From: an uncultured Myxococcales bacterium
GTDB lineage: Bacteria; Myxococcota_A; UBA9042
NCBI GenBank assembly: GCA_937910235.1
Contig: CALENB010000101.1
Coordinates: 2,098 to 66,097, forward strand
Direction of reading: 5' to 3'
DNA length: 64,000 nt
A program made the translations under genes and the position numbers. The notes beneath the pieces were generated by a model, which was not told the DNA's origin, made no database searches, and saw only the letters and a program-made list of their open reading frames with translations. Within the stretch, counting starts at the first letter, position 1. Every line of letters starts with the position of its first letter. Shown here one piece after another: positions 45,146 through 59,446 of the stretch.

Positions 45146-46231
45146 ATGACCGCACCCAGCCGATCCACGCACGCCCAGTCCAAATACACGCCGTCCACGC
45201 ACCACCATCGGCCTCTCCTGTGGGCGCTGCTCAGCCTAACGGTCGCCTGCAGCAGCGGCGCAACCGACGCGAACAGCGGCGCTCTTGCCAGGCGAAGCGG
45301 CGACACGGCGCAGGTCTGGGAGGTTGGTGACGGGAGCGGCGACACCACGGCTGGCCTAGTGGATACGGGGCTGACGGACGCGGCTCTGGCCGACTCAGCG
45401 CCCTCCAAGGCGGACGCCGACCCAGATGCGGCCGGGCGCGCGAGTGGCGGCGACGGTTCAGCGGCGACGGCGCTGTGCAGTCACGGCACCGTGATCGTGC
45501 AATGCAGCTACAAGACGGAGGTCCTCAGCATCGGTTTTCCGCTCGATTCGCAGCGCAGCGTGCATTGGCAGCTGCCCCTCGGCGAGGCCCCGACCGGCGG
45601 TTGGCCGTGGGTGCTGATCTTTCAGGGCTCGTTCTTCTCCGCCGACCAAGCCTGGACCGCGACCCCGCTGTCGGCGTTCGGAGCGTTGTATCTGGTCGAG
45701 ACGATCGAGGCGCTACTGGGGGCCGGATACGCCGTGCTGACGCCCGAGGCCGCCGCGAGCGGCACCACATTCTGGAACACCAACGTCATGCCGTGGCGCG
45801 CCGCTTGGTCCAGCTCACCCGACGCCGCCTTGATGAAGGTGCTGTTCGCAGCCGTACAGGCCGGCAAATTCGGGCCGTTGGACCCCAAGCGGCGATTTGC
45901 CGCAGGCGCCTCAAGTGGCGGGTACATGACGAGCCGCATGGCGATCGCCTACCCCGGCACGTTCCGCGCGCTGGCCATCATCGCGGCGGCCTACGCGACT
46001 TGCGCTGGTTCGCTCTGCCTAGTGCCGTCGTTACCGGCCGACCATCCGCCTACGCTGTTCATGCACGGTCAGCTCGACTTGGTGGTGCCACAATGGACCG
46101 CGGAGCTCTACAAGGGCGCTCTGGACAAGCAAGGCACGCCGACGTCCCTGATCAGTGATCCGCTTGGGGGGCACAGCTGGCCGGCGACCGGCGCCAAGGC
46201 GATCCTCGAATTCTTCGGCGAGCATCCGTAG
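45146..46231 (+). CDS. Secreted alpha/beta-hydrolase esterase, LpqC/PHB-depolymerase-like
   Basis: Lipobox (LSLTVACSSG) and a nucleophile elbow GASSGGYM in a secreted esterase layout. The ORF is open from 44765 but the signal peptide starts at 45146. Confidence 0.55.
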   Translation: MTAPSRSTHAQSKYTPSTHHHRPLLWALLSLTVACSSGATDANSGALARRSGDTAQVWEVGDGSGDTTAGLVDTGLTDAALADSAPSKADADPDAAGRASGGDGSAATALCSHGTVIVQCSYKTEVLSIGFPLDSQRSVHWQLPLGEAPTGGWPWVLIFQGSFFSADQAWTATPLSAFGALYLVETIEALLGAGYAVLTPEAAASGTTFWNTNVMPWRAAWSSSPDAALMKVLFAAVQAGKFGPLDPKRRFAAGASSGGYMTSRMAIAYPGTFRALAIIAAAYATCAGSLCLVPSLPADHPPTLFMHGQLDLVVPQWTAELYKGALDKQGTPTSLISDPLGGHSWPATGAKAILEFFGEHP

Positions 46232-46265: not shown

Positions 46266-46281
46266 TTGTGCAGCGCAACAA
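46266..46281. promoter_or_regulatory. Predicted PhaR operator copy A: TTGTGCAGCGCAACAA, directly upstream of a TTGACA -35 element
   Basis: Palindromic TTGTGC-N3-GCAACAA. The same motif recurs at 46376, 56621 and 57783. Confidence 0.5.
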
Positions 46282-46375: not shown

Positions 46376-46390
46376 TTGTGCAGCGCACCA
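46376..46390. promoter_or_regulatory. Predicted PhaR operator copy B: TTGTGCAGCGCACCA, between the putative promoter and the SDR start
   Basis: Half-site TTGTGC-N3-GCAC, 30-50 bp upstream of the SDR start codon. Confidence 0.45.
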
Positions 46391-46438
46391 TAGCCCTCTC
46401 AAGCTGGTTAGCGCCGCTTGGGCGGTCGGAGCAACGAC

Positions 46439-47185
46439 ATGGATTTGAAAGACCTGAAGGTCATCGTCACGGGCGCCGCTAATGGCATGGGCACACATTT
46501 TGCCAATCAGCTCGCGGCCGCAGGTGCCTCCGTCGCGGCGGGGGACATCGACGTTGCCGGACTCGAGCGGCTCGCGCCCGGGATCCACACCCGCCGCCTC
46601 GACGTGACCGACGATGCAGACCTAACGGCCTTTGTTGACTGGGCGGCGGCGCAGATGGGGGGCCTCAATGGCCTCATCAACAACGCGGGCATCATCCGCG
46701 ACGGGTTGTTGGTGCGGAGAGACCGCAAATCTGGCGAGATCACCAAACTGTCGCGGCAGTTTTGGGACGACGTGCTCGCGGTCAACCTCACCGGCGCGAC
46801 CATGATGGTGCGCGAGACGATCGCCAAGATGATCGAGATCGAGCAATTTCCCGGCGTGATCGTCACCCTGTCGTCGATCTCAAGGCACGGCAACGCGGGG
46901 CAGAGCAACTACGTCGCGGCCAAGGCGGCGCTCGCGGCCAACACGCTGACGTGGGCACGGGAGTTCTCGCGATATGGCATCCGCTTTGGCGCGATCGCGC
47001 CAGGGATGGTGGCGACGCCGATGACGGCCGGCATGAATGAGAAGGCGCTCGCGGCGCTGACGGCCCGCATCCCGGTTGGTCGCATCGGGTTGCCTGAGGA
47101 CATCTGGCAAGCGATCCGGTTCGTGCTGGAGTGCGACTATTTCAACGGTCGCACCATCGATGTAGACGGCGGCCTGTCGATGTAG
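46439..47185 (+). CDS. Short-chain dehydrogenase/reductase (FabG/PhaB-like 3-ketoacyl reductase)
   Basis: TGAANGMG Rossmann motif and a YxxxK catalytic segment (NYVAAKAA). Possible acetoacetyl-CoA reductase role given the PHA gene context. An alternative start lies at 46418. Confidence 0.7.
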   Translation: MDLKDLKVIVTGAANGMGTHFANQLAAAGASVAAGDIDVAGLERLAPGIHTRRLDVTDDADLTAFVDWAAAQMGGLNGLINNAGIIRDGLLVRRDRKSGEITKLSRQFWDDVLAVNLTGATMMVRETIAKMIEIEQFPGVIVTLSSISRHGNAGQSNYVAAKAALAANTLTWAREFSRYGIRFGAIAPGMVATPMTAGMNEKALAALTARIPVGRIGLPEDIWQAIRFVLECDYFNGRTIDVDGGLSM

Positions 47186-47201: not shown

Positions 47202-48233
47202 TCAGCGGGCGTCGCGCGCAGCCCACCAGCCCGACAGCGCCGGCCACAAGCCCTGAGAAGCTGGCCGCGACACGACCCCGCCGACGTGACTGCCGGGGAG
47301 CTTCCAGACCGCCTTGTCCGTCGACGCCACGACGCCTTCAATGCAGGCGCAATCCTGCCACGGCGCGATGGCGTCCTGCTCAAACACCACGGCGAGGAGG
47401 GGGCAGGCGATCCGACCGAGGTGCACTGGGTTGCCGGTGATGGCCAGCGTGCCCGCCATCAAGGCGTTCTGCCGATAGAGCTCGTCGAGGTACCGCTTGA
47501 AGAAGTGGCCGGGCAGCGAGACGTTGTCGCTCGACCAGGTCTCCAGGGCGAGATACCCGGCCAAGAACCGGTCATTCCAAGCCCTGTCGATCAGGTTGAC
47601 GGCCTTGGCTAGCTTGAGCGTGGGTCGCAGCATCTGAAAGCTCCCCTCGAGCAGTTGCCACGGCATCAGACCAAAAGCGGCGGTGATGGCTCCCACGTCA
47701 AAATCCGGCGAGCGCGTCCATGCGCCCAACAACCCGTCGCCGTGAAATTGCATCGGCGCGGCGAGGTTGCAGACCGAGGCGACATGGGTCGCGTCGAGCG
47801 CGGCCTGGATGACGGTGAAGATGCCACCCATGCAGTACCCCAGCAGGTGGGTTTGGCGCCGGGCGCTGCTGCGGGCGACGATGCGCACGCATCGGGGCAG
47901 ATAGACGCCGCAGAGCTCGTCAAAATCAACAAACCGATCCTCGGCCTGCGGGGTGCCCCAGTCGATGATCCAGACGTCATGGCCCGCCGCAACAAGGAAC
48001 TCGACGAAGCTCTTGCCTGGCATCAAATCCAGGATGTAGTGGCGGTTGATGAGCGAGGGCACCAGCAAAATCGGCGTGGCGAAGGCGAGTCCTTCGGGCC
48101 GCGGGCGGTAACGCAGCAGGCGCAGCTTGTTCTCGCGGTGGATCACGTCCGACGGGGTGCCGCCCACGTGGGGCTTGGGTCGCCGCTTCAAAGTGACTAG
48201 GTTTTTCAGCCGCGCAAAGCCCTTGTCGCCCAC
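47202..48233 (-). CDS. phaC: PHA synthase catalytic subunit, class III/IV-like paralog (PhaC2)
   Basis: Shares ILLVPSLINRHYILDL, AGHDVWIIDWG and the GYCMGG lipase-box (Cys nucleophile) motifs with the PhaC at 58367. Confidence 0.7.
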   Translation of the reverse strand: MGDKGFARLKNLVTLKRRPKPHVGGTPSDVIHRENKLRLLRYRPRPEGLAFATPILLVPSLINRHYILDLMPGKSFVEFLVAAGHDVWIIDWGTPQAEDRFVDFDELCGVYLPRCVRIVARSSARRQTHLLGYCMGGIFTVIQAALDATHVASVCNLAAPMQFHGDGLLGAWTRSPDFDVGAITAAFGLMPWQLLEGSFQMLRPTLKLAKAVNLIDRAWNDRFLAGYLALETWSSDNVSLPGHFFKRYLDELYRQNALMAGTLAITGNPVHLGRIACPLLAVVFEQDAIAPWQDCACIEGVVASTDKAVWKLPGSHVGGVVSRPASQGLWPALSGWWAARDAR

Positions 48234-48256: not shown

Positions 48257-49951
48257 TTACGCGTACATCGCCGCAAACGTCTCGGCAAACATCTGATGAA
48301 CCTGCCGGCGCCTCACCTTGAGCGTCGCCGTCAGCAGCCCAGACTCGATCGTCAGCGGGCTGTGGATCACCTCAAAGCGCTTAATGGTCTCGTGACGCGC
48401 CAGCCCGGCGTTCACGGCCGCGATGCGCCGCTCGACCTCTTCTCGCAGCAGCGCTCGGACCTGGGCTTCGGACAGGTCGACCGGCTTTGCGCCCCGAAAT
48501 GCGGCCTCTGCGAGCGGATCGAGCCAGACGCCAGCCGTCAGAAAACGCCGACCGTCGCCGAAGAGCACGAGGTGTCCGACCAGATCGTCGTCCGCAAAAC
48601 GCAGCTCCACATTCGCCGGCGGCACGTTCTTGCCGCTCGCGAGCACAAAGATGTCCTTCTTTCGGTCGATGATCTGAAGAAAACCGTCCTCGGTGAACCG
48701 CCCCACGTCGCCCGTGCACAGCCAGCCATCGTCGGTGAACGCTGCGGCCGTCGCCTCCGGGTCCTTGTGGTAACCCGCGAAGATGTTGGGTCCGCGCGCC
48801 AAGATCTCGCCATCGTCGGCGAGGCGGAGCGCCACCGACGGCAGCGGCCGCCCCACCGAATCGAAACGGAACGCGTCTGGCCGGTTGAGCGTCAGCGTCG
48901 GCGACGCCTCGGTGAGACCGTACCCTTCGATGATCAGCAGACCGTTGCGATGAAAGAACTGCTTCACCGCGACGCTCAGCCCTGCGCCACCCGAGAGCAG
49001 AAAGTGGAAGCGACCACCGGTCAGCTCGCCGAGCCGCTGCGCTTGGGCCGCCTCGTCGCCCGCCTTCATCGCAAACGACGCGAGCTTCTCGAAGACCGCC
49101 GGCACGCTCATGAAGACGGTGGGCCGCACTTCGGGCAGGTGCTTGAAGAGGTCAATCGGCTCACACAGCCAGGTCTCGAAGCCCAACGTGTTGCCCAGGC
49201 ACGCCTCGCCAAAGCCGAAGATATGGCTCATCGGCAGCCACAGCAGATCGACATCGGGGGCCTCGCCATCGGGATCAGCGAGCATCGTGGCGTTGCACTG
49301 CAACCAGTCTCGGCCGTTGCTCGCGACGTTGAGGTGGGTCAGGGGCACGCCCTTGGGTAGCCCCGAGGTGCCCGACGTGTAGAGCATCACGGCGCCGTCC
49401 TCGAGGGAGATGGCGTCGAGGAGCCGGCCGATAGCGCCTGTGTCCTCGCCGTGCAGCGCCGCGCCGATCTCAAGCGCTTCGGAGAGGTTGTGCGCCGCCA
49501 GGGCGGGGCCGGTGGCGGCGCCGTCGAAACGCACCACCTGTGGCGGCGTGGGCAGCGGCGCCAGCGCCTCGTGCAGCTTGTCGGCGAGCGGGTCCGTCGC
49601 CACAAACACAAAACTGGCGTCGCTATGACCCACCACGTGCCGCACCTGCTCAGCGGTGCAGCTCGCATACACCGGCACCATCACGCCACCCGCTGCCTGG
49701 ATAGCCAGCGCGGCCGTCATCCATTGCACGCTGTTTGGCGCCAAAATCGCCGCCCGATCACCCCGCTGCAGGCCCGCTGCGCGCAGCCAGAGGGCGAGAT
49801 GCTGAATGTCTGCGGCGAAGGCCCCCCAGGTCACGTCGCGCCAGCCATCGCCGTCGGGGACGTGAAAACGCACCCGTTCGCTGCGGGAGGGCAGCGCGTC
49901 AAAGACGATGCAAGGCGCCGGCTTGGGGGCGAGGTAGGGCGTAGGATCCAT
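48257..49951 (-). CDS. AMP-dependent acyl-CoA synthetase/ligase embedded in the PhaC2 operon
   Basis: LYTSGTSGLPKGV AMP-binding motif. Gaps of 3 nt and 23 nt to its flanking genes imply one transcript. Confidence 0.75.
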   Translation of the reverse strand: MDPTPYLAPKPAPCIVFDALPSRSERVRFHVPDGDGWRDVTWGAFAADIQHLALWLRAAGLQRGDRAAILAPNSVQWMTAALAIQAAGGVMVPVYASCTAEQVRHVVGHSDASFVFVATDPLADKLHEALAPLPTPPQVVRFDGAATGPALAAHNLSEALEIGAALHGEDTGAIGRLLDAISLEDGAVMLYTSGTSGLPKGVPLTHLNVASNGRDWLQCNATMLADPDGEAPDVDLLWLPMSHIFGFGEACLGNTLGFETWLCEPIDLFKHLPEVRPTVFMSVPAVFEKLASFAMKAGDEAAQAQRLGELTGGRFHFLLSGGAGLSVAVKQFFHRNGLLIIEGYGLTEASPTLTLNRPDAFRFDSVGRPLPSVALRLADDGEILARGPNIFAGYHKDPEATAAAFTDDGWLCTGDVGRFTEDGFLQIIDRKKDIFVLASGKNVPPANVELRFADDDLVGHLVLFGDGRRFLTAGVWLDPLAEAAFRGAKPVDLSEAQVRALLREEVERRIAAVNAGLARHETIKRFEVIHSPLTIESGLLTATLKVRRRQVHQMFAETFAAMYA

Positions 49952-49954
49952 CGC

Positions 49955-50422
49955 TCAAAGCTCCTTGCTGCGCTTCTTGGAGGCCGGTTTTGCGGCCGGT
50001 TTTGCCGTCGGTTGGGCGTCAGGCTGTGCGGTCGGCTGTGCGGTCGGCTGTGCCGCCGCTGTGACGGCTCGCACCGTCTGCAGGGCCTCGATCAGCACCG
50101 CGTCGCGCTCGGCTAAGGCGCTGACCAAGGTTCGGATCTCGTCTCGCTGCACCGCGAGCTGCTCCTCCAAGTCCATCATCCGGCTGCCGAGCTGATGCAC
50201 CTCGTGCAGCATCCGCTCCTGGTCCCGCTTCACGGCCACGCCCGCCTGCCCCCACAGGGTCGCCGATTGGTGGTCGGCCTTGGCCTTGGCCTTCGCAGCC
50301 GCGGTGAGCATGGCGCCAGCGGGGCCGAGCAACATGGGGCTCTTCATCACCTGTTCCATCCACGTCGCCGTAGCGTTCTCCCATGCGTCGAAGCCGCCTT
50401 TCCAGGTTTTCCAGGTGTCCAT
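49955..50422 (-). CDS. Small Trp-rich/coiled-coil protein, putative PHA synthase partner subunit (PhaE/PhaR-subunit-like) or phasin
   Basis: 155 aa. The N-terminal W-x2-W-x6-W segment and C-terminal coiled coil resemble the 147-aa protein upstream of phaC at 57924. It is the first gene of the PhaC2 operon. Confidence 0.4.
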   Translation of the reverse strand: MDTWKTWKGGFDAWENATATWMEQVMKSPMLLGPAGAMLTAAAKAKAKADHQSATLWGQAGVAVKRDQERMLHEVHQLGSRMMDLEEQLAVQRDEIRTLVSALAERDAVLIEALQTVRAVTAAAQPTAQPTAQPDAQPTAKPAAKPASKKRSKEL

Positions 50423-50522: not shown

Positions 50523-50568
50523 GCGCCGCCCTCAGCCGCCAGCTCGCGCTCACAAGCTGAGGCGGCGC
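50523..50568 (-). terminator. GC-rich hairpin (13-bp stem, 19-nt loop) overlapping the 3' end of the lipoprotein gene
   Basis: GCGCCGCCCTCAGC ... GCTGAGGCGGCGC. It separates the 5-gene operon from the PhaE-like operon. Confidence 0.35.
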
Positions 50569-51473
50569 AGCTCCGAGGCGGTCTCAAAGTCAGCTTTCGT
50601 CTCATTTCTCAGGCTCGTGGCCCGCGCCACCTCCCCGAGGCACTCGAATAGAAACGACACCTGCTGCTCGGTGATCGTCGGCCCGATCGCGGGCGTGATG
50701 GTCAGCTTGGTCCGCACGCGGAGGGTCTGGGTCAATGTCAGGTCCGGTAGCTCGAGCCGGCCGGTGGCGTCGACCGAGACCTCGTACGTGTCCTCGCCGA
50801 TCCACGGCAGACCGTAGAGCTTGCCGTTCGACACCTTGCCCTTCGAGGTCCAGGAGCGCCCTTTCTCGAGCGGAAAGCGCAGCACAGCCACGGGCTGCTG
50901 GTACACGAGCAGCGACTGGCCATCAGCCGGCGACTCCTCGCGGGAGGCCGTGCCCAGCAACCACAAGCCCTGAACATCGCGGCGGTAGACGGCGTCGAAG
51001 CGGCCGCCCGCATCCAGCCCTACGGTGAAGGCGTCCGCGGCGAAGTGCGCTGCGTACCAGCGCCCAGAGACCGGCGTCGCGGTGAAGCTCGCGAGTCGAT
51101 CGGTGCTGCTGCGTTCAGACCAATCCCACACCTGCTGGCCTTTGTCGTTGACGAAGCCCTTGAGGTCGACGGGCACGTGCAGCTCCGCCGGGCTGACCCG
51201 AAACCTCGCCGGGATCCCCATGGCGGCGACGAGCTCGGAGGCGTCGATGTGCCCGTCGAGGTTCGGAATGCAGGCGGGCCCGTTCCCCACCGCGGGCACA
51301 TACGGCAACAGCGGCCCGGCTTGCCCATTCTCGGCGGCACAGGCACAGGCGATGAGGCACCCCAGGGCGACCGCGACGCGGGAGCGCGCCGCCACGCCGC
51401 GATCGAGCCGGATTTGCGGGCTGTTGGCGGGTCGCGACCGCTGCGGGTTTATCATCAGGGGCTCGTGGCGCAT
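50550..51473 (-). CDS. Lipoprotein, paralog of 53991-55043, conserved C-terminal DFETASELRRL tail
   Basis: Lipobox (ALGCLIACAC). Aligns along its length with the other lipoprotein. An alternative longer start at 51521 would overlap the upstream gene. Confidence 0.55.
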   Translation of the reverse strand: MRHEPLMINPQRSRPANSPQIRLDRGVAARSRVAVALGCLIACACAAENGQAGPLLPYVPAVGNGPACIPNLDGHIDASELVAAMGIPARFRVSPAELHVPVDLKGFVNDKGQQVWDWSERSSTDRLASFTATPVSGRWYAAHFAADAFTVGLDAGGRFDAVYRRDVQGLWLLGTASREESPADGQSLLVYQQPVAVLRFPLEKGRSWTSKGKVSNGKLYGLPWIGEDTYEVSVDATGRLELPDLTLTQTLRVRTKLTITPAIGPTITEQQVSFLFECLGEVARATSLRNETKADFETASELRRLSL

Positions 51474-51484
51474 CGATCGTTCCC

Positions 51485-53086
51485 TCAGAAAGTGTACTGC
51501 AGCGTCAGCCGCGCCAACCACGCAGACTTGGCTTGTAGCCCAGCGGCTGGATTATCCAGGCCCGACAGTGGCAGCAGCCACGCGCCCTGGAGTGCGGCGA
51601 TGAAGCCGTCACGGCTCTCGTAACGGATGGTGGGATCGATCTCGACACCCAAGGGTCGTGTGCCGCCCGGCGTCGATTGGGCCTCGACCGCCCAGGCCGC
51701 GACGGCAGCGAGGTCGAGCTGCAACGTGCCCGCGCCGAAGTCTGCGACGCGGTGATGCACGTGCGGCCGCAGGTAGATCGCGTCGGTCACGCGCCCGAGC
51801 AGCTCGCGGAACAGGATGCGATCGACGCGGTAGTCCGAGTGAAAGCGAAAGTTGTCGATCCGCGTGTCCGCCGGCGGGCTCGCCTGGGGACCGTCGAGCT
51901 CGCCCGGCTGCGGGTAGCCTGCGCCCACGGGCTGGGCCGCGCCGAACCCCGGGGCCGGGTCGCCGCTGGCGTAGCCTGCGTCCAGCCCGCCACCGAAACC
52001 CTGCTTCGGGTCGCCGAAGTCGGTCTGGAGCGCCGCGCCGATCTGCAGCGACTCGACGGGATCCCGATAGAGGGCGCCCGGCAGGAGCGTGCCCTGCTCA
52101 ACGGTGCCGGAGAGCACCGCGGCTTCGACCTCGACGCGAAACCGCGCGCCGCGCCATCGCAACCAGAGGTCACCGGCGAGCGCCGAGAAGTTGCGCGGCA
52201 CCACCGAGGCCGAGGTCAGCGCGCCCGACGCGGACTGGCTCGGGTCGACGTTCGGCAGCCAGCTCGCCGGTACATCCAGCTCCTGGGTGCGGCGCGACAG
52301 CCACAACCCAGCGTCGAGGGTGGTGCGGCCAGCCCGAGCTCGACGCGCGAACGTGGTCTCATCGGCGAAACGCAGCACGGCGAACGTGATGGTTCGCACG
52401 TCATCCCGAGGATCGAGGTCGATGGTGCGGCCGGGCGCGGTCCGCGCGACCTGCGGTCCCGTCGCCGAGAAGTCGTAGGCGAGCGCCCAGATGAGCCCGG
52501 CGATGGGGGTCACAAACGCGATGCGGTCGGCGGCGTCTCCCGTGTCGCTCTCCATGCCATCGCCGCCGTGGGTCAAGATCCCCAGCCCCCAATGGCTGCC
52601 CATGCGCCCCGCAGCCAGCACGCCGAACGGGGTGACGGTCTCGGCCCACACGCGACGAAGCCGGATCTGCGCGCTCTCAGGCGCCTGCCCCGTTGCGCCG
52701 AGCGGCGCGCCGTCAGGGCTGGCGCCGAGGCCCGTGCCGTCCATGACGTCCAGCCGCATGTGAATGGCCAGACCGCCGCGCGGCGCGAAGATCGACAAGT
52801 CCGTGCGCAGCCGCATGTCGGCGTGGGTCAGCATCGCGGCTGTGGGGTCGGACAGCGGCACGGGGAAGAACATGCGCCCAGAGGGGGTCGGTCCGCGGTC
52901 CAGATCCAGGTTGTTGAGCGCTTCGCCCCGCAGCCGCAGCGCGCCATGCACCTCGACAGCGGTCGTCGCGCGATCGTGCAGGCCTTGTCCTAGCTGCGTG
53001 AAGGTCTCTGCGGCGGTCGCAGGCGCCACGATGCCGCTCGCCAGCAAGGTTGTAGACGCCCAGAGCGCCAGCGTTGTCGCCCTCAT
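51485..53086 (-). CDS. Outer-membrane beta-barrel protein (FadL/porin-like), hypothetical
   Basis: Signal peptide (TLLASGIVAPATAAE), alternating beta-strand pattern and a C-terminal aromatic residue (LTLQYTF). Start overlaps the hydrolase stop by 4 nt. Confidence 0.5.
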   Translation of the reverse strand: MRATTLALWASTTLLASGIVAPATAAETFTQLGQGLHDRATTAVEVHGALRLRGEALNNLDLDRGPTPSGRMFFPVPLSDPTAAMLTHADMRLRTDLSIFAPRGGLAIHMRLDVMDGTGLGASPDGAPLGATGQAPESAQIRLRRVWAETVTPFGVLAAGRMGSHWGLGILTHGGDGMESDTGDAADRIAFVTPIAGLIWALAYDFSATGPQVARTAPGRTIDLDPRDDVRTITFAVLRFADETTFARRARAGRTTLDAGLWLSRRTQELDVPASWLPNVDPSQSASGALTSASVVPRNFSALAGDLWLRWRGARFRVEVEAAVLSGTVEQGTLLPGALYRDPVESLQIGAALQTDFGDPKQGFGGGLDAGYASGDPAPGFGAAQPVGAGYPQPGELDGPQASPPADTRIDNFRFHSDYRVDRILFRELLGRVTDAIYLRPHVHHRVADFGAGTLQLDLAAVAAWAVEAQSTPGGTRPLGVEIDPTIRYESRDGFIAALQGAWLLPLSGLDNPAAGLQAKSAWLARLTLQYTF

Positions 53087-53994
53087 CTCGCGCCTTCCTG
53101 CAGAAAGGACCGCAAGTCCGCCGTGGAGGCCGCCGCCGCTTCGATCATGGGGAAGTGTCCGCAGCGCGGGTAGAACTTCAGCCGCGCTTGGGGCAGGTCG
53201 GACGCGAGACGCCGGGCAAATCGCGGCATCGAGATGCGGTCATCCCGCCCCCAGAGCAGCAGCACGGGCTTCTGGATGCGGCGATAGGCGGGCTGCATCT
53301 CGGCGAAATGCTGACCCCGCACCGCCGCCAGCGCCGCCGCCCGGGTGCCTGGTCGCTTGAGGGCGAGCTGCAGCTCATCGACAAACGCCTCGGTGAGAAT
53401 GGATGGATCAAAGAAGCCCGTCGCCAGCCGCTCCTCCGCGCGTTCGGTGTAAAAGAGCCGAAAAATCGCCTCGCCGAGGCCACCCACGGCGGCCCAACGG
53501 AAGAACGCTGGGATCTGGTCGTCGTAGACCCAAGCGTCATACAGCGCCACGCGCTCGACCCGATCCGGGGCAGCGATCGCCAACGCCAGCGCCACCGAGG
53601 ACCCCCAGGAGTGGGCGACGACGGCGAAGCGCTTCACGCCCCTGGCATCGAGCAGCTTGAGCACCAAGCGCGCCTGCGCCTGGGGGCTGTAATCACCCGC
53701 TGGCCGGTCGCTCCAACCAAACCCCTTGAGATCCAATGACAGCACGCGGTGGGTGCCGCGCAAGGCCTCGTCGACCCCAACCCAGGTCTCGAGCGCCGAG
53801 GCGAAGCCGTGAAGCAGCACCACCGCCGGTCCCTGCCCGCGGTCGGTGTACCGCACACGCACGCCGTCGATGCGCTGCCAAGCCGCGTTCTTCGGCTCGC
53901 CGCGCATGGCGCCCTGATGAAAGGACAAGCAACCGCTCGCCGACAGCGTCAGCAGGCCCAGCAGCGCGACTATGGGGTACGCGTGACGCTTCAC
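53083..53994 (-). CDS. Secreted alpha/beta-fold hydrolase lipoprotein
   Basis: A GTG start gives a lipoprotein signal (VKRHAYPIVALLGLLTLSASGC). HGF oxyanion motif (VVLLHGFAS) and nucleophile elbow AHSWGS. The GTGA overlap with the upstream gene stop suggests translational coupling. Confidence 0.65.
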   Translation of the reverse strand: MKRHAYPIVALLGLLTLSASGCLSFHQGAMRGEPKNAAWQRIDGVRVRYTDRGQGPAVVLLHGFASALETWVGVDEALRGTHRVLSLDLKGFGWSDRPAGDYSPQAQARLVLKLLDARGVKRFAVVAHSWGSSVALALAIAAPDRVERVALYDAWVYDDQIPAFFRWAAVGGLGEAIFRLFYTERAEERLATGFFDPSILTEAFVDELQLALKRPGTRAAALAAVRGQHFAEMQPAYRRIQKPVLLLWGRDDRISMPRFARRLASDLPQARLKFYPRCGHFPMIEAAAASTADLRSFLQEGAR

Positions 53995-55043
53995 GGCGTG
54001 AGCCTGCGCAGCTCGGAGGCGGTCTCGAACTCGTCGCTCGTCTCGCCGTCTTTGGACCGCGCGGCGGCGACCGTGCCGAAACACTCGGTGGCGAAGAGGA
54101 ACGAACGCACGGTGGTGGTCAGCAGGCCAATCTGGCGGGTCAGCAGGGTCCGCACACGCAGCGCCGGGAAGTCGCCGAAGGGGGTCTTCACGGTGCCCGA
54201 GGCGTCCACCTCGCTGCCGTAGCTCTCGCTGTAGATCACGATCACGCCCTTGGCGAGGCCACTCACCGACGCCTTAACCTGCCATTTGGCCCCGATCTTC
54301 AGGGGAAAAGCCAGCAGCGGCACGGGTGGGTCGTACACCAAGCGCGTCGCGAACAAGCTGTTGTCCTTCGACACCACGCCGCGCAGGAGCAGGGCCTTAC
54401 CGTTGGCCTCGAACACCCCGAGCAGATCGCCTGAGGGAGCCATCGGCGCGGCATAACTGGCGCCGGGATAGTAGCTAGAAAACCAGAGGTCTTTGACAGG
54501 CAGGGTCTTGACCAGCACGTCTTGGTCGCCAGTCATCTTGCCCGAGAAGTCCCACACCCGCTGGCCCCCGGCGACGATCTCGCCCTTCAAGTCGACGGCG
54601 GTGTTCTCGGCCACCCGGAAGGTCGCGGCCAGGTTGGGGCCATAGGGCGCCTCGGAGGCTGTGATGGTGCCGTCGTGGTTCGGTTTGCACGCGCCAGCCT
54701 GGCCGCCAGTGTCACTCACACCGACATCGGCGGTTGGGAGGCTCGTGTCAGCAGCCGAGCCGGAGCCGTCGGACCCGGAGGCGACGGCGCCATCCTGCCC
54801 CGACGCGGCCCCGTCGCCGGTCTCCCAGCGGGTCGGGAAGCTGCCGTCCGCGGCGTCCGCGACCGACGCCGGCGCGCACGTGCCGTTGGATTGGCAGATG
54901 CTCGACGCACAGTCAGCGTTGACGTTACAGGACGCGATCGCCGTCTCGGCGCCGCAGGCCACGCCGACGACCACGCTCAGCGCGCACGCCGCGGTCACGC
55001 GAAGCCGCCGGAGGGCGGTCGCGCGCGGTGCGCTCATCTTCAT
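53991..55043 (-). CDS. Lipoprotein, paralog of 50550-51473, C-terminal DEFETASELRRL tail
   Basis: Signal MKMSAPRATALRRLRVTAACALSVVVGVACG with a Cys-rich N-terminal segment, then a domain that aligns with the other paralog. Confidence 0.55.
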   Translation of the reverse strand: MKMSAPRATALRRLRVTAACALSVVVGVACGAETAIASCNVNADCASSICQSNGTCAPASVADAADGSFPTRWETGDGAASGQDGAVASGSDGSGSAADTSLPTADVGVSDTGGQAGACKPNHDGTITASEAPYGPNLAATFRVAENTAVDLKGEIVAGGQRVWDFSGKMTGDQDVLVKTLPVKDLWFSSYYPGASYAAPMAPSGDLLGVFEANGKALLLRGVVSKDNSLFATRLVYDPPVPLLAFPLKIGAKWQVKASVSGLAKGVIVIYSESYGSEVDASGTVKTPFGDFPALRVRTLLTRQIGLLTTTVRSFLFATECFGTVAAARSKDGETSDEFETASELRRLTP

Positions 55044-55138
55044 CTTGTTCCAGGCCAACCTCATGTCGCCTCCCTCTCTGCCTGAGTGCGGCTCGCGAGC
55101 CGTGACGCGCCGCTCTTGCCTGGGCGCGGTGCCGATCG

Positions 55139-56437
55139 CTAGCTTGCGGAGGCAGCGTCGCTCGTCACCGGGCCGGTCACGGCGGCGCTGGCTGGATCCA
55201 TCGCTGCGGCCCCGACACGCGCGCGGCTGCCGGTCTCCATCAGCCCCATCGCCGGCACGACGATGAGCAGGTGCGCAAACGCCAACAGCCCGAGCGCCGC
55301 GCTGAAGCCGCCCGCGCCTGCGACCGCGCCCGTGGCCACTGGCAGCAGGAAGCCGCCGAGCTGGCCGACAAGCAGCAGCAGACCGAGCGCCGCGCCGGCT
55401 CGACTGACGCCAACGCCGGGGAGCTCGAGCGGCAAGGTGAGGACCAAGGGCGCAAAACAACCGCCGCCGATCGCGGCTACCGCCAACCACAGCCCCGGAG
55501 ATCCGGGCACGATCGCCATGATACCGAGGGCCGCCGCCGCGAGCATCGCGCCGCCAATGATGAAGGGACGCCGCAGGCCGACCTTGTCCGAGAGCCACGC
55601 GCCGCCCAGGTTCGCGACCCCCGCCACGCCAAGCCACGACGCCACCGCGACGCCTACTTCGGACGCGCTCATGCCCGCGTCGGTGAGCAAGCGCGGCAGC
55701 GAGCCGAGCAGCGCGAGGTAGCCACCAAAGAGCAGCAGCTGAATGCCCGCGACCCGCATCAGTTGGGCGTTCTTGGCCAACTTCAACACATCGGCGAGCC
55801 CTGCATGTCGCGAGAGCGCCGCCCGGTCGCGCACGAGCCACAGCCACAGCAGCCCGGTCAGCACCATCGCCACACCGGCGGCCACCATCGCCATCCGCCA
55901 GCCTCCCAGCATCGGCGCGAGCCAGGTCCGCGCCACCAACACCGTGATGGCGGTGCCAAAGGTGTAGCAGATGAGCGCGATGCCGTTGGCGCGACCCAAG
56001 TTCTGCAGCGGGACGTGGGAAGCCAAGATCTTCGGGATGGCGGGGGCCACAAATCCGACGTGCAAACCAAATCCCAACATGGCGATCGCCATCGTCCACG
56101 GCCCGGTAGCGAGGGCGCGGGAGGCGCAGGCCAACGCCCCTACCATGATCGCGAGCCCGGCGACCCAGCGCGCACCCCAGCGGTCCACGGCCGCGCCGCC
56201 CATGGGCGCCGCCACGGCGATCCCAAACGGCGCCGCGCCCCAAACCACCCCACCCATCGCATGCGAGATCGACAGATCGGCGGCGATGTCGGGCATCAGT
56301 GGCGGCAACAGCGACCACCCCAAACCACCGCCAACACCCTGCATGGCGCCAGCGAGCGCAGTGACCAGCACCGGCCGCGCAGGAGCGCCCTGGAGCACGT
56401 CCTGTATCCCGCTCTCGATCTTCGCTTGCACCGTCAT
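55139..56437 (-). CDS. MFS transporter
   Basis: 12-TM layout with Gly-rich helices. Start chosen at MTVQAKIES; the ORF is open to 56536. It is the first gene of the 5-gene operon and is divergent from phaR. Confidence 0.65.
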   Translation of the reverse strand: MTVQAKIESGIQDVLQGAPARPVLVTALAGAMQGVGGGLGWSLLPPLMPDIAADLSISHAMGGVVWGAAPFGIAVAAPMGGAAVDRWGARWVAGLAIMVGALACASRALATGPWTMAIAMLGFGLHVGFVAPAIPKILASHVPLQNLGRANGIALICYTFGTAITVLVARTWLAPMLGGWRMAMVAAGVAMVLTGLLWLWLVRDRAALSRHAGLADVLKLAKNAQLMRVAGIQLLLFGGYLALLGSLPRLLTDAGMSASEVGVAVASWLGVAGVANLGGAWLSDKVGLRRPFIIGGAMLAAAALGIMAIVPGSPGLWLAVAAIGGGCFAPLVLTLPLELPGVGVSRAGAALGLLLLVGQLGGFLLPVATGAVAGAGGFSAALGLLAFAHLLIVVPAMGLMETGSRARVGAAAMDPASAAVTGPVTSDAASAS

Positions 56438-56620
56438 CGTCGCTCTCCTCGCTGGCCTCGCCGCGCCCTGAACTGCCTCGCCGCGCCCCGAGCGGCCGCG
56501 AGAGGCTACGGTCACCCGGCTGTGTGGGCGCGCCACCGCGTCGCGGATGCGCCACAGCGGCCGGGCGAGTGGGAAGCGAGCAAAAGCTAGGGGCTCGCGG
56601 GGCTCGCGTCAAGCGCTATT

Positions 56621-56635
56621 TTGTGCGCTGCACAA
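56621..56635. promoter_or_regulatory. Predicted PhaR operator copy C: perfect palindrome TTGTGCGCTGCACAA upstream of phaR, divergent from the MFS operon
   Basis: Perfect inverted repeat. A second palindrome GTGCTGCATTCAGCAC lies at 56646-56661. Confidence 0.5.
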
Positions 56636-56939
56636 TACCGCTTTGCGTGCTGCATTCAGCACCAAGTCATCAGGCTGGTCGCGAGCTAAAGGTTCGTGTA
56701 GGCTGGCTTTCGCGGCGTAAATGGTGCGTAGTTTGCGGTGTTCTCCAGACAGAATTCACGCCCAGTCAGACACGACCCGAGACGGAAAACGGCATTGGAT
56801 GCTGCAGACGCGGTGCTGCGACGCTGCGGCGCAACAGTCCGGCGCTCCACCGGCAGAGACCCCCGCTTCAAGATCCACAACGACGACGACACGACGAGAC
56901 ACACCGCACCAACCCGCTGCAGCCAACCAGGGAACCGAC

Positions 56940-57764
56940 ATGATCACCATCAAGAAGTACAGCAATCGTCGTCTCTACGACACCGACCGCAGCAGCTACA
57001 TCACCTTGGAGGACCTCGCCGAGCGCATCTGCAAAGGCGATGACGTGCGGGTGGTCGACGCGTCCACCGGCCGCGACCTGACTCAGGCGACGCTGGTGCA
57101 GATCGTGCTTGAGAGCCGGGGCGCTGCGCGCTTTCTCCCCGCGCCGCTGCTGGTCGCCATGATCCGCATGGGGGATGACGCCCTGGCCGAGTTCCTCGGT
57201 CGCTACATGAGCTGGGCGCTGCAGGTGTACTCGGGTGTGCGGAGTCAGGCGCGCACCATGATAGGCGCTTTTGGGCCGGGTTCATTCATGAACGGCGGCC
57301 CCTTCACGGGCTTCATGGGGGGCACACCATGGCAGGGAGGCGCCGGCGGCCACGGTGGGGCGGGATGGGGTCAAGGTCCGCAGGGCTGGAGCCCACACGG
57401 CGCGGGTGCACAGGGCGGGCAGGGTTGGGCCGCGCAAGGTCAGCCGATGCCTTGGGGGGCGCCCGGTTGGCCCCTTCCGCCACAGCCCGAGCCGCCGCGG
57501 TCTGAGGCCTCGTGGTCGCCGCCGTCGGCGTCCGATGTCCCGCCGCCGGAACCCGTGTCGGCGGCCCAGGCAGCCTCATCCACGCCAGGGTCATCCACGG
57601 CAGGGTCATCCACGGCAGGGTCATCCACGCCAGGGTCATCCACGCCGGCGTCATCCCCTGAAGCCACCGCTCCCGACCCGGCCCGCTCCGAGCTTGCTGC
57701 GCTGCGGCGAGAGTTGGATGAGCTTCGGGATTCATTGAAGGCAGGTGCTCGTTCAAAGAAGTAA
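56940..57764 (+). CDS. phaR: PHA synthesis repressor PhaR (PHB_acc_N DNA-binding domain) with Ser/Thr/Gly-rich C-terminal repeat tail
   Basis: N-terminal MITIKKYSNRRLYDTDRSSYITLEDL signature. The ORF is open from 56721 but the conserved domain starts at 56940. Confidence 0.85.
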   Translation: MITIKKYSNRRLYDTDRSSYITLEDLAERICKGDDVRVVDASTGRDLTQATLVQIVLESRGAARFLPAPLLVAMIRMGDDALAEFLGRYMSWALQVYSGVRSQARTMIGAFGPGSFMNGGPFTGFMGGTPWQGGAGGHGGAGWGQGPQGWSPHGAGAQGGQGWAAQGQPMPWGAPGWPLPPQPEPPRSEASWSPPSASDVPPPEPVSAAQAASSTPGSSTAGSSTAGSSTPGSSTPASSPEATAPDPARSELAALRRELDELRDSLKAGARSKK

Positions 57765-57782: not shown

Positions 57783-57798
57783 TTGTGCGGTGCAACAA
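57783..57798. promoter_or_regulatory. Predicted PhaR operator copy D: TTGTGCGGTGCAACAA, immediately upstream of a TTGACG-N17-TAGGTT promoter
   Basis: Same motif and the same operator-then-(-35) arrangement as copy A. It is upstream of the phaE-like/phaC operon. Confidence 0.5.
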
Positions 57799-57923: not shown

Positions 57924-58367
57924 ATGGCCAACAAGACCGAGACCGGCGCGACGGACACCGCAAACAACACCACGTCGACGAGCGACGCTCCGCAACCGCA
58001 GCAGACCGCCCCCACCTGGCCGGATTGGCGCGCCTTCACTTGGCCGCAGCAGGGCGAGGCGCCGCAGATGTTTCAGATGCCGCAGATGTTCCAGATGCCG
58101 CAGATGCCCGAGATGCCGGGCCACGAGCTGTGGAGCAAGGCGGTTGCTGACAACGTCGCACGCATGGAAGGCCTCGTCGGCGCGCTGCAAGCGCAGTCGC
58201 AGCGCCAGTCGGAGCAGGCTGAGAAGGCCATCGACGAGCTGGCGCGGCTCACCAAGGCCAGTCTCGGTTACGGCCTGGAGCTGCAGGCCCGTGCGCACGG
58301 CATGTTCATGGACAACGCGCGCAAGGCGTCGGCGGCGGCCGCCACCAGCAAGGGCGTGGTGGCCTGA
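57924..58367 (+). CDS. Small PHA synthase partner subunit (PhaE/PhaR-subunit-like) with MFQMPQ repeat and coiled coil
   Basis: 147 aa with a W-rich N-terminus (TWPDWRAFTWP). It is translationally coupled to phaC (TGATG overlap). Confidence 0.45.
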   Translation: MANKTETGATDTANNTTSTSDAPQPQQTAPTWPDWRAFTWPQQGEAPQMFQMPQMFQMPQMPEMPGHELWSKAVADNVARMEGLVGALQAQSQRQSEQAEKAIDELARLTKASLGYGLELQARAHGMFMDNARKASAAAATSKGVVA

Positions 58368-59446
58368 TGTTCGGGCTGAATCTGCGTGAGGGGGCTGCGC
58401 CCTACGACGTCACCATGCGCGACGGCAACAGTCGCCTGCTCCGTTTTCGGACCACGGCCACTGGCGCGGGGCGACCGATTCTGCTTGTGCCGTCGATGAT
58501 CAATCGTTGGTACGTGCTCGATCTCGGCCCCGGCGCCAGCCTCGTCGCCGCGCTGGTGGAGGCGGGCCATGACGTCTGGTGTCTCGACTGGGGTGTGCCT
58601 GGAGACGAAGATCGACATCTGGACTGGGAGGCGGTGACCGCGCGGCTGCAGCGGACGGTGCGCTTTGTGCGGCGGCGTACCGGCGGCGACCCGGTGGGTC
58701 TACTGGGCTACTGCATGGGTGGGACGCTAGCCGCGATTCACACAGCGCTGCATCCGGAGGACGTGGCAGGGCTCGTCAATCTCGCCGGCCCGATCGATTT
58801 TGCCAAGGCCGGCGTGCTGGCGCACTTCGTCGATCCGCAGTGGTTTGATGCCGAAGCCATCGTGCAGGCCGGCAACCTAAGCCCAAAGCAAATGCAGGAC
58901 GGGTTCACCGCGATCTCACCGAGCAAGCAGATCGCCAAGTGGATCATGCTGGCCGACCGCGTGATCAGCGCGACGGATGCCGACGCACGCACAAAGGGCA
59001 TCGGGAGCTTCGCCCGCCTTAACGGGTGGGCGTCGGACAACATCCCGTTCCCGGCCGCCGCGTACACGACGTGGATTCGCGACCTCTACCAGCGCAACGA
59101 CCTAGCGCAGCGGCGCCACCACGTGGGCGGACGGCGGGTGGAGCTTGGCCAGATTGGCTGCCCAGTGCTCGTCATCAGCGCCGCCAACGACGCCATCTGT
59201 CCACCCGAGTCGGCCACGGCGTTGCTTGATCAGGTCGCGTCCACCGACAAGCGTCACGTCCAAGTGCCCGGTGGCCATGTCGGGGCTGTGGTTGGTCGAC
59301 GGGCGGCCAAGCTGCTGTACCCCGCCATCTCGGCGTTCTTCGAAGAGGCGGCACCGTCACGTGCCCCTAGCGCTTATTCGGGGTCACACGACGCACCCGA
59401 CCCTGTCGGCGTGCCATGGTCTGCCGCACACCGCCCGAGCTGTTGA
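58367..59446 (+). CDS. phaC: PHA synthase catalytic subunit, class III/IV type
   Basis: Collinear with class III PhaC (ILLVPSMINRWYVLDL, GHDVWCLDWG, GYCMGG lipase box, ASDNIPFP...IRDLYQRN, active-site His region GGHVG). Confidence 0.8.
   Translation: MFGLNLREGAAPYDVTMRDGNSRLLRFRTTATGAGRPILLVPSMINRWYVLDLGPGASLVAALVEAGHDVWCLDWGVPGDEDRHLDWEAVTARLQRTVRFVRRRTGGDPVGLLGYCMGGTLAAIHTALHPEDVAGLVNLAGPIDFAKAGVLAHFVDPQWFDAEAIVQAGNLSPKQMQDGFTAISPSKQIAKWIMLADRVISATDADARTKGIGSFARLNGWASDNIPFPAAAYTTWIRDLYQRNDLAQRRHHVGGRRVELGQIGCPVLVISAANDAICPPESATALLDQVASTDKRHVQVPGGHVGAVVGRRAAKLLYPAISAFFEEAAPSRAPSAYSGSHDAPDPVGVPWSAAHRPSC

Follow-up and report, generated by a model that had tools for sequence, protein, structure and literature searches.

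In the FadL/FadD system of Escherichia coli, long-chain fatty acids that have come through an outer-membrane channel are trapped by an acyl-CoA synthetase in the cytoplasm, without the help of a dedicated inner-membrane transporter. FadL is a 14-strand barrel with a hatch domain and a lateral opening. Carboxylate channels of the Occ/OprD type are found in Pseudomonas and Acinetobacter. PlaF of Pseudomonas aeruginosa, which we take to be PDB entry 6i8w and a membrane-anchored periplasmic phospholipase A1, is an alpha/beta hydrolase tethered by an N-terminal transmembrane helix. Periplasmic hydrolases and outer-membrane lipoproteins are also standard parts of the secretion of alginate, cellulose, PNAG, and Pel, and SusC/D-type loci of Bacteroidota co-regulate an outer-membrane transporter, lipoproteins, and an envelope hydrolase with cytoplasmic enzymes. 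Class III PHA synthases combine a PhaC carrying a Cys lipase box with PhaE, and PhaR acts at PhaR-type palindromes.

The locus described here lies in a window of 64,000 nt (the whole stretch of DNA analyzed, from whose first letter all positions are counted). Its gene content and order indicate that it is probably a conserved seven-gene operon (eight with an MFS transporter gene), controlled by PhaR, that links envelope genes with those of a PHA synthase in the order (MFS)-LP1-esterase-OMP-LP2-PhaE-ACS-PhaC1. As in class III systems, both PhaC1 and PhaC2 have about 340 to 360 amino acids and a Cys lipase box, each is preceded by a PhaE-like gene, and PhaR contains a PHB_acc_N domain and is accompanied by PhaR-type palindromes. 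The locus differs from these systems in that both PhaCs score below the class III equivalog cutoff (TIGR01836; 245.8 and 222.3 bits versus 365), PhaE is cut to about 90 to 155 amino acids that cover only the C-terminal part of PF09712, and a CoA ligase lies between PhaE and PhaC. Moreover, these genes stand behind four envelope genes in one putative operon, an arrangement that, to our knowledge, no described pha locus shows.

The likeness to FadL/FadD is the pairing of a channel with a ligase, whereas the barrel here has 18 strands, a charged lumen, and no Toluene_X match, two lipoproteins and a periplasmic hydrolase are added, and the genes share one operon with a PHA synthase instead of a fad regulon. 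No sequence relationship to Occ/OprD channels is detectable; the barrel is about 110 to 160 residues longer, belongs to TIGR04551, and is always paired with lipoproteins. Like PlaF, the hydrolase is predicted to be membrane tethered on the periplasmic side, but through a lipobox Cys. Unlike exopolysaccharide systems (AlgE/AlgK/AlgL, PgaA/B, BcsC/Z), the synthase is cytoplasmic and soluble, the locus lacks a TPR scaffold as well as any synthase or copolymerase of the inner membrane, and the polymer is a polyester normally kept in granules. The locus follows the same logic as the SusC/D-type polysaccharide-utilization loci, but it has neither a TonB-dependent transporter nor a SusD fold, belongs to another phylum, and presumably handles an ester and not a glycan. 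No paper mentioning TIGR04551 and no description of such an envelope-PHA system in the PHA and Myxococcota literature was found, and no Pfam or NCBIfam model matches the LP1/LP2 lipoprotein family. This agrees with the initial annotation, which held the gene combination to be undescribed. A connection of this kind between the envelope and PHA synthesis is apparently undescribed, and it is kept in hundreds of uncultured myxobacterial genomes.

Gene order and its conservation

The five envelope genes reported in the initial annotation at 50550 to 56437 were all recovered on the minus strand with the features given there, and they form the front half of the putative operon. The accessory first gene encodes an MFS transporter (55139 to 56437; 432 amino acids), followed by LP1 (53991 to 55064; 357 amino acids), the alpha/beta-hydrolase lipoprotein (53083 to 53994; 303 amino acids), the outer-membrane beta-barrel OMP (51485 to 53086; 533 amino acids), and LP2 (50550 to 51473; 307 amino acids). 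The tight coupling claimed for the whole row holds for LP1 and the hydrolase, which share GTGA at 53994 to 53991, for the hydrolase and OMP, which share ATGA at 53086 to 53083, and for OMP and LP2, where 11 nt lie between the stop of the one and the ATG of the other. It does not hold for the MFS gene, whose stop (55139) is 74 nt from the LP1 start (55064), so that this gene is not tightly coupled. Beyond LP2, a 127-nt gap in which no convincing terminator was found leads to mini-PhaE (49955 to 50422; 155 amino acids), the acyl-CoA synthetase ACS (48257 to 49951; 564 amino acids), and PhaC1 (47202 to 48233; 343 amino acids), all on the same strand and probably transcribed together with the envelope genes.

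The comparison set consisted of 81 related loci from Myxococcota, all in MAGs and at 45 to 60% amino acid identity. The order LP1-hydrolase-OMP-LP2 was invariant in the 61/61, 69/69, and 74/74 loci whose contigs permit the check, with LP1 upstream of the hydrolase in all 61. Gene order is held in about 80 species-level genomes despite this low identity, and the arrangement is therefore far beyond chance. The proposed five-gene unit is accordingly syntenic for four of its members, whereas an MFS orthologue occurs in only 7 of 59 loci, which means that import by this MFS is no general part of the mechanism. Mini-PhaE follows LP2 in 59 of 65 loci, mostly after 5 to 40 nt and typically after 13 to 30 nt, ACS is present in 59/65 and PhaC1 in 57/65, and the complete PhaE-ACS-PhaC1 series continues after the four-gene module in 57 of the 65. 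The connection to PHA is in this respect stronger than had been proposed from the flanking synthase loci, both of which were confirmed.

Where PhaE-ACS-PhaC1 is not found downstream, a Cys-type PhaC-like gene (GLCQGG, DUF3141-type) often lies directly upstream in the same orientation (loci L081 and L064), and in two loci (L044 and L080) ACS-PhaC is upstream of the module; the linkage to a synthase is thus kept in rearranged loci. Three loci (L009, L013, and L053) have the four-gene module with no PhaE-ACS-PhaC1 after it, and L009 retains PhaR alongside, with a ceramidase-domain gene next to PhaR. The lipoprotein family has 888 representatives among 1.84e9 proteins, and all 81 related loci examined show it in this operon context, to which it appears to be confined.

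Envelope proteins

The OMP matches NCBIfam TIGR04551 at 342.9 bits (cutoff, 300; E = 3.5e-102), with residues 45 to 533 aligned to positions 2 to 519 of a 519-position profile, and its homologues carry the name "TIGR04551 family protein" at NCBI and JGI. This uncharacterized family is apparently restricted to Myxococcota. The sequence presents a signal peptide (ATA/AE) and ends in LQYTF, and the AlphaFold model (pLDDT, 77.6) shows 18 strands with alternating hydrophobic and polar faces, no plug, and a charged lumen. The signal peptide, the closed barrel of amphipathic strands in the model, and the C-terminal aromatic residue identify it as a predicted outer-membrane beta-barrel. Membership in the Occ/OprD family was rejected (7 to 13% identity, no match to Pfam OprD, and no PDB match with the family profile), as was a FadL/Toluene_X channel (no match to PF03349, 18 strands instead of 14, and no plug).

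LP1 consists of a signal peptide ending in VGVAC, a Cys-rich stretch, a low-complexity linker of about 80 amino acids, and a beta-barrel-like domain that has its paralogue in LP2, and has no Pfam match. The paralogy noted before is borne out by 37% identity over 246 residues (E = 4e-38). The domain of LP2 is soluble and beta-barrel-like; it includes an EF-hand-like loop, and Cys68 and Cys278 probably form a disulfide. Its true start may be GTG 51395 rather than ATG 51473: with the GTG, the protein has 281 residues, which fits homologues of 276 to 290 amino acids, and the signal peptide is of normal length, with 19 residues up to Cys45, whereas the Shine-Dalgarno sequence (GAGGG) is better at the ATG. 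Among 20 sequences of the family, Cys45 is conserved without exception. With signal peptides and lipoboxes (LSASG-C in the hydrolase, VGVA-C in LP1, and ACA-C45 in LP2), all three are predicted lipoproteins. The envelope locations assigned initially gain support from these conserved lipoboxes, the conserved Ser/Asp/His of the hydrolase, and the modeled 18-strand barrel.

The hydrolase matches PF00561 at 107.6 bits (cutoff, 25.8; E = 1e-30) and contains the HGF and AHSWGS motifs as well as the LSASGC lipobox. Among 72 hydrolase sequences, conservation reaches 95% or more at HGF, HSxG (Ser129), Asp252, and His280, and nearly all of 71 orthologues have a signal peptide with a Gly-Cys lipobox together with the motif C-[LM]-x-F-H-x-G-P-M-P-G-E-P. 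The family match, the triad, and the oxyanion HG point to a serine hydrolase of the alpha/beta-hydrolase fold, predicted to be a periplasm-facing esterase or lipase. Its nearest solved relative is 6i8w (E = 4.8e-19; residues 41 to 298 on 46 to 304), a similarity that barely exceeds that to meta-cleavage-product (MCP) and epoxide hydrolases, which score almost equally. Assignment to PHA depolymerases or 3HB-oligomer hydrolases was rejected (NF050089, 66 bits versus 300; TIGR02240, 38.9 versus 250), there was no match to the Pfam depolymerase families (Esterase_PHB, PHB_depo_C, and 3HBOH among the models considered), and the best NCBIfam matches are generic (AcoC/PcaD-type). Another esterase lipoprotein, at 45146 to 46231, is specific to this genome.

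The first gene product is a predicted major facilitator superfamily member by its match to PF07690 (135.5 bits; E = 2.8e-39; residues 38 to 366). Its best NCBIfam matches, weak and far below cutoff, are to D-galactonate, PgtP/UhpC, aromatic acid, and lactate transporters.

PHA genes and the control region

ACS matches PF00501 and PF23562. Among NCBIfam models, FadD11 and long-chain-fatty-acid-CoA ligase score best, with every match below cutoff, and in the PDB the enzyme comes nearest to A-domains of carboxylic acid reductases, to FadD13, and to FadD5; it resembles long- or medium-chain ligases and not short-chain ones. Its position between PhaE and PhaC implies a free acid as the feedstock of the synthase. 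Mini-PhaE, a small coiled-coil protein with a PT-repeat tail, would be a minimal PHA synthase subunit; orthologues in two related loci (L008:3708-3980 and L003:10875-11159) match the C-terminal part of PF09712 (PHA_synth_III_E) at 31.3 bits versus a GA of 25.7 (E = 1.7e-7 and 1.6e-4). PhaC1, the predicted class III-like catalytic subunit with a Cys nucleophile, has PHA synthases as its PDB matches (E = 4e-30). PhaC2 (58367 to 59446) is 40% identical to it, and both contain the GYCMGG Cys box. A coiled-coil protein, PhaE2 (57924 to 58367; 147 amino acids), is encoded between PhaR and PhaC2.

PhaR, the putative PHA-responsive repressor, is encoded on the plus strand (56940 to 57764), divergent from the operon and presumably starting at ATG 56940 (MITIKKY). 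It matches PF07879 (PHB_acc_N) at 87.7 bits (cutoff, 25; E = 5.5e-25) and TIGR01848 at 87.5 bits, under the cutoff of 109. The divergent region (56438 to 56939) contains two PhaR-type boxes: the palindrome TTGTGCAGCGCACAA at 56621 to 56635, with the core TGCGCTGCA/TGCAGCGCA at 56624 to 56632, and TGCGGCGCA at 56825 to 56833. TGC-N3-GCA was seen 95 times versus 9 expected in the equivalent intergenic segment of 55 related loci, an enrichment of about 10-fold, with at least one copy in 54 of the 55. This motif fits the experimentally validated palindrome core of Sinorhizobium meliloti PhaR, YGCRNYGCR (PMC12542648). The operon was initially said to share its upstream region with the PhaR box at 56621; with PhaR as the divergent neighbor of the module in 53/59 loci, the link to PhaR is stronger than was proposed there. 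The boxes probably place the operon under PhaR control, although a box between divergent genes could have phaR autoregulation as its sole purpose.

Possible function

We tentatively favor, with a probability of roughly 0.4, a "scavenge-and-store" route that carries exogenous acyl or hydroxyacyl esters into PHA. The 18-strand barrel would be a substrate-specific channel through which an exogenous ester or organic acid enters the periplasm, with LP1 and LP2 working alongside, perhaps as a physical complex; candidate substrates are oligomers from other cells' PHA or lipid-derived esters. The lipid-anchored hydrolase would split ester bonds in the periplasm. The freed (hydroxy)carboxylic acids would pass the inner membrane through the MFS transporter in the minority of genomes having it, and elsewhere unassisted or by an unlinked carrier, as in vectorial acylation of the FadL/FadD type, a mode of uptake that would account for the 52/59 genomes that do without the MFS. 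ACS would trap the acids as CoA thioesters for polymerization by PhaE-PhaC1, where (R)-3-hydroxyacyl-CoA from direct ligation requires no other enzyme, and de novo PHA synthesis would fall to the divergent phaR-phaE2-phaC2(-SDR) unit.

The ester uptake and periplasmic hydrolysis suggested initially would fit the components of the locus, namely, the Occ-like channel fold, the esterase lipoprotein, and the CoA ligase with the synthase. The conserved order, PhaE-ACS-PhaC1 in 57/65 loci, the re-created synthase linkage, the PhaR boxes, the intact hydrolase triad, and the position of the ligase argue for it, as do the weak MFS matches to organic-anion importers where an MFS is present. PHA genes have been reported from Myxococcota MAGs, together with numerous predicted extracellular PHA depolymerases, above all of the mcl type (PMC11821767; bioRxiv 10.1101/2020.05.08.085522), an ecology that also favors scavenging. 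Against it count the hydrolase, which is above threshold in no depolymerase family and is nearest to 6i8w, the resemblance of ACS to long- or medium-chain ligases, and the finding among related loci of neither a secreted depolymerase conserved next to the operon nor a conserved inner-membrane component.

An unlikely alternative is that the cell recycles lipids of its own envelope: a PlaF-like phospholipase or lysophospholipase would act on the cell's membranes, LolA-like lipoproteins and the barrel would handle the products, the ligase would re-activate the fatty acids, and carbon would flow to PHA once PhaR is titrated away. The full-length alignment to 6i8w, the FadD11/long-chain type of the ligase, the ceramidase-domain gene of L009, and the lack of a conserved importer are consistent with such recycling, but the 6i8w similarity stays at the level of the generic fold, with MCP and epoxide hydrolases near-equal, and it is hard to see what a charged 18-strand channel would do in the turnover of internal lipids. 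PhaC does not, moreover, use fatty acyl-CoA directly, and a PhaJ or beta-oxidation gene is absent from the operon. Transport in the outward direction, by which an acylated product, or an oligo- or polyester made by PhaC, would reach the periplasm, the outer membrane, or the cell surface, is very improbable. Co-operonic placement with a polymer synthase would suit an analogue of synthase-dependent exopolysaccharide systems, with their 18-strand AlgE-type barrel, lipoproteins, and trimming or releasing hydrolase, the last two being standard there. However, PhaC and PhaE are soluble, cytoplasmic, and devoid of membrane segments, and the loci share neither a translocon in the inner membrane nor a scaffold spanning the periplasm. 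Uptake channels match the barrel at least as well as AlgE does, and PhaR control and a CoA ligase fit intracellular storage better.

It is also doubtful that the module is an uptake or envelope-maintenance complex of unrelated specificity, placed beside PHA genes for regulatory convenience within a PhaR (carbon-surplus) regulon. The PhaR regulon of S. meliloti does reach well beyond PHA genes and includes many transport functions (PMC12542648), no component carries a PHA-specific family signature, and three loci lack PhaE-ACS-PhaC1 after the module, one of them still with PhaR. Yet the short LP2-PhaE gaps, seen in about 59/65 loci, point to one transcription unit maintained over deep divergence, the lipoprotein family is seemingly confined to this operon type, and rearranged loci regain adjacency to another PhaC-like gene.

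Gene organization of the envelope operon and its PHA neighbors

The region has a G+C content of approximately 68 to 71%, so that long spurious open reading frames are common. Gene calling by reading-frame composition and inspection of start sites retrieved five real genes on the minus strand. These encode an MFS transporter (55139-56437, 432 aa, with GAGGAG ahead of the ATG), the lipoprotein LP1 (53991-55064, 357 aa, with GGGAGG ahead of the ATG), an alpha/beta-hydrolase lipoprotein (53083-53994, 303 aa, with a GTG start), the outer-membrane barrel OMP (51485-53086, 533 aa), and the lipoprotein LP2 (50550-51473, 307 aa). The initial annotation had described them as one tightly coupled operon (50550-56437), and the junctions on which it relied are exact: a GTGA overlap at 53994-53991, an ATGA overlap at 53086-53083, and an 11-nt gap before the ATG of LP2. 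The description does not hold for the MFS gene, which is separated from LP1 by 74 nt and is therefore not tightly coupled. Judging from the sequence, LP2 could instead start at GTG 51395, which gives a homologue-like length and a signal peptide of normal type (19 residues) that ends at the family-invariant Cys45.

The MFS protein matches PF07690, shows weak similarity, below cutoff, to organic-anion transporter subfamilies, and has no match at 1e-3 in the PDB. The hydrolase matches PF00561 and PF12697 and carries a lipobox (LSASG-C) together with the motifs HGF and AHSWGS. OMP scores 342.9 bits against the uncharacterized NCBIfam family TIGR04551 (curated cutoff, 300), with no match in Pfam. 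LP1 and LP2 match no family in Pfam or NCBIfam and are paralogues, with 37% identity across 246 residues (E value of 4e-38).

After LP2, same-strand genes follow at 127 nt, with no convincing terminator in the gap. At the G+C content of the region, the terminator scan (matches at the level of shuffled sequence) and the promoter consensus scan (0 promoters) were uninformative. The downstream genes encode a coiled-coil protein of 155 aa, an acyl-CoA synthetase (ACS) of the kind that acts on long- or medium-chain fatty acids, and the PHA synthase PhaC1. Upstream and divergent lie the repressor PhaR, which probably starts at ATG 56940, a 147-aa coiled-coil protein, and a second synthase, PhaC2. 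Both synthases present the synthase-type Cys box GYCMGG, share 40% identity, and score under the class III equivalog cutoff. The 155-aa protein is regarded as a minimal PhaE because its orthologues match the C-terminal part of PF09712 (PhaE family) above the gathering score; only these orthologues reach PF09712, as the two small proteins of the window have no PhaE match in Pfam, nor any detectable similarity to each other. The C terminus of PhaR (57500-57764) is a long low-complexity tail of GSST/AGSST repeats. There, the metagenome contig L001 and the window differ by approximately 15 nt (98% protein identity), an indication that repeat length is variable among strains.

Just past an SDR/PhaB-like gene (46412-47185) are plus-strand genes for a second acyl-CoA synthetase (42184-43962, 28% identical to the operon ligase), a 274-aa secreted Gly/Trp-rich protein of no family (43962-44786), and a DUF4404 protein (44874-45140), none of which is kept beside the operon in relatives. 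The plus-strand gene at 45146-46231 encodes a 361-aa lipoprotein with an LTVA-C lipobox, a low-complexity linker of approximately 90 aa, and an alpha/beta-hydrolase domain. Its GASSGG nucleophile box and weak matches to Peptidase_S9 and Esterase_PHB suggest a possible secreted esterase or depolymerase. As a conserved secreted PHA depolymerase beside the operon it was rejected, being missing from related loci.

Conservation of the operon and of PhaR-type boxes

A profile built from LP2 homologues retrieved relatives in 332 species-representative genomes, and the 80 loci kept all belong to Myxococcota MAGs; an identical LP2 protein is also present in aquatic metagenome contigs. All window proteins were compared by tblastn with 81 related loci (L003 and L005 to L084), and synteny was counted over the loci whose contig reaches the position in question. 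OMP lies immediately upstream of LP2 in 74/74 loci, the hydrolase upstream of OMP in 69/69, and LP1 upstream of the hydrolase in 61/61. PhaE-ACS-PhaC1 follows immediately downstream of LP2 in 57 of 65 loci, mostly after 5 to 40 nt (typically 13 to 30), and PhaR is adjacent and divergent in 53 of 59. Since protein identity to the window is only 45 to 60%, this synteny has been long maintained and does not reflect recent common descent. The MFS gene, present in 7/59 loci, was discarded as an obligatory inner-membrane step.

The lipoprotein family is small (888 representatives at an E value of ≤1e-3 among 1.84 billion), and the operon context is found in 81/81 of its related loci. Only in L009, L013, and L053 do the 10-kb flanks of the four-gene module LP1-hydrolase-OMP-LP2 contain no linked synthase. 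In L044 and L080, ACS-PhaC lies upstream of the module. In L081 and L064, a different Cys-type PhaC-like gene (470 to 487 aa, GLCQGG, DUF3141/PHB_depo_C; L081:5005-6417 and L064:4384-5847) stands directly upstream of LP1 in place of the downstream PhaE-ACS-PhaC1, and this sub-lineage also carries a large AcrB-family (RND) gene past PhaR. L009 also encodes, on the far side of PhaR (1905-4592, minus strand), a neutral/alkaline ceramidase domain within a protein of 895 aa, a single case that hints at a lipid connection. The 696-aa gene call in L003, an open frame across LP1 and the hydrolase, was dismissed as a sign of physical interaction: the hydrolase part retains a signal peptide and a lipobox of its own (MRRALWLPLFIVLLATGC...), so the call is an overlap read-through, and the arrangement was seen in no other locus.

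Between PhaR and the gene that opens the operon, TGC-N3-GCA occurs 95 times over 55 loci, against an expectation of 9 copies derived from the complete loci; 54 of the 55 contain at least one copy. The most frequent forms (TGCAATGCA, TGCAACGCA, TGCACTGCA, and TGCAGCGCA) are consistent with the palindrome core YGCRNYGCR of Sinorhizobium meliloti PhaR, validated by EMSA and mutation (PMC12542648). Enrichment and fit together support the PhaR box proposed by the initial annotation. In the window, such boxes lie at 56624-56632, within the palindrome TTGTGCAGCGCACAA (56621-56635), and at 56825-56833. They would be compatible with control of the operon as well as with autoregulation of phaR, two functions that are not separable at this level. 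The SDR/PhaB-like gene is closely preceded by two identical TGCAGCGCA boxes (46269-46277 and 46379-46387), and another PhaR-type box (57786-57794) lies upstream of the gene for the 147-aa coiled-coil protein (57924-58367), which suggests that the local PhaR regulon may be wider. Over the whole window, a degenerate PhaR motif occurs 21 times against 13 expected, showing no clear enrichment.

Possible role of the operon in PHA metabolism

What the data establish is that the operon (MFS)-LP1-esterase-OMP-LP2-PhaE-ACS-PhaC1 is conserved, together with a divergent phaR and boxes of the PhaR type. The reading that employs every part, to which we give a probability of about 0.4, is a salvage route from exogenous esters to PHA. 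The channel and lipoproteins would let in an exogenous acyl or hydroxyacyl ester, the tethered esterase would split it, and the freed acid would arrive in the cytoplasm, where the ligase would convert it to a CoA thioester for polymerization by PhaE-PhaC1. The ligase gene lies between those of PhaE and PhaC, which argues for a free acid as the feedstock; (R)-3-hydroxy acids, once ligated, would be direct synthase substrates. In FadL/FadD vectorial acylation, fatty acids are taken up without a conserved inner-membrane carrier, and the operon likewise lacks one. According to published reports, PHA genes occur in Myxococcota MAGs, as do numerous predicted extracellular PHA depolymerases, the mcl type above all (PMC11821767; bioRxiv 10.1101/2020.05.08.085522), which makes the salvage route ecologically plausible.

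Several findings count against salvage. Neither the hydrolase nor the ligase bears a PHA-specific signature, and no conserved secreted depolymerase lies beside the operon in related loci. The nearest solved structure to the hydrolase is 6i8w (E value of 4.8e-19), which we take to be Pseudomonas aeruginosa PlaF, and generic hydrolases score almost equally. We consider recycling of the cell's own lipids unlikely; it is likewise doubtful that the genes are co-regulated with no metabolic coupling. OMP is modeled as an 18-strand barrel (pLDDT of 77.6) in which a hydrophobic face alternates with a charged face carrying the invariant residues R51, R53, D90, R92, R94, D96, R440, and H442. On the model, the pattern is more in keeping with a polar pore that selects its substrates than with a lipid conduit of the FadL type. 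The OMP family profile finds nothing in the PDB at an E value of ≤1, and the channel fold is equally close to an exporter and to importers. This lack of preference for importers also weighs against salvage. Outward transport of a polyester-derived product appears highly improbable.

It is improbable, to a lesser degree, that the module is the envelope arm of a new polyester pathway and not a nutrient importer, in either of two forms. PhaC-derived 3-hydroxyalkanoate oligomers could be placed on or beyond the outer membrane by a synthase-linked system, made up of a barrel resembling AlgE, the lipoproteins, and a hydrolase that trims the product. Alternatively, in a predator, (R)-3-hydroxyacyl chains stripped from the lipid A or PHA of its prey could be ligated straight to CoA and re-polymerized, bypassing central metabolism.

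PHA metabolism is usually pictured as wholly cytoplasmic, comprising synthase, phasins, depolymerase, and PhaR, whereas here, across relatives in uncultured Myxococcota, the synthase operon includes genes for a channel of the outer membrane, a predicted periplasmic esterase, and two lipoproteins whose family has no name. Each of the parts falls into a broad class already known (porin-like barrel, lipoproteins, alpha/beta hydrolase, MFS, class III-like synthase, and PhaR), and we rate the arrangement as the fusion of a locus for substrate acquisition with a storage-polymer operon; the chance that it is something less ordinary is modest. Literature searches on TIGR04551, on PHA with myxobacteria, and on Myxococcota MAGs with PHA retrieved no account of the system or of envelope genes within a pha operon. 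If the coupling is metabolic, extracellular esters would here have their first dedicated path into stored polyester, and TIGR04551 and a lipoprotein family without a Pfam or NCBIfam model would gain a first functional context. Such a path would bear on carbon turnover by myxobacteria that are abundant in freshwater, soil, and activated sludge, on the degradation and re-use of bioplastics, and on the engineering of cells to re-polymerize PHA breakdown products. The carriers are uncultured Myxococcota, and the hypotheses are open to direct test with recombinant proteins.

Conserved features of the hydrolase and lipoproteins

The catalytic residues and lipobox of the hydrolase are conserved in approximately 70 orthologues. 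From the lipid-anchored Cys on (53890-53930), nearly all of 71 orthologues share the motif C-[LM]-x-F-H-x-G-P-M-P-G-E-P, a conservation unusual for a lipoprotein tether, which makes this stretch a candidate docking segment.

LP2 is modeled as a 13-strand beta-barrel-like domain (pLDDT of 85.8), with weaker matches to the DUF1849-family protein 6ntr (presumably Brucella EipB), YmcC, and LolA-type carriers. The lipoprotein family conserves a Cys pair (Cys68 and Cys278) and a loop, C-x-P-N-L-D-G-x-I-D-x-x-E, at residues 68 to 80 of LP2 (approximately 51236-51272) and 126 to 138 of LP1. Against the PDB, the lipoprotein profiles gave a weak EF-hand/lanmodulin match (6mi5, E value of 0.003) over one loop only. 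The conserved loop resembles a metal-binding EF-hand loop: position 2 is Pro, a feature shared with lanmodulin, and the usual Asp is missing from position 1. In the N-terminal region of LP1 (54700-55010), the lipobox is followed by a Cys-rich stretch (CNVNADCASSICQSNGTC) and then, ahead of the barrel domain, by a Gly/Ser/Asp/Ala-rich linker of approximately 80 residues, which by analogy may be of the kind of the long tethers of surface-exposed lipoproteins. Two other members of the family, P0241 (789 aa) and P0244 (892 aa), each contain three tandem LP domains.
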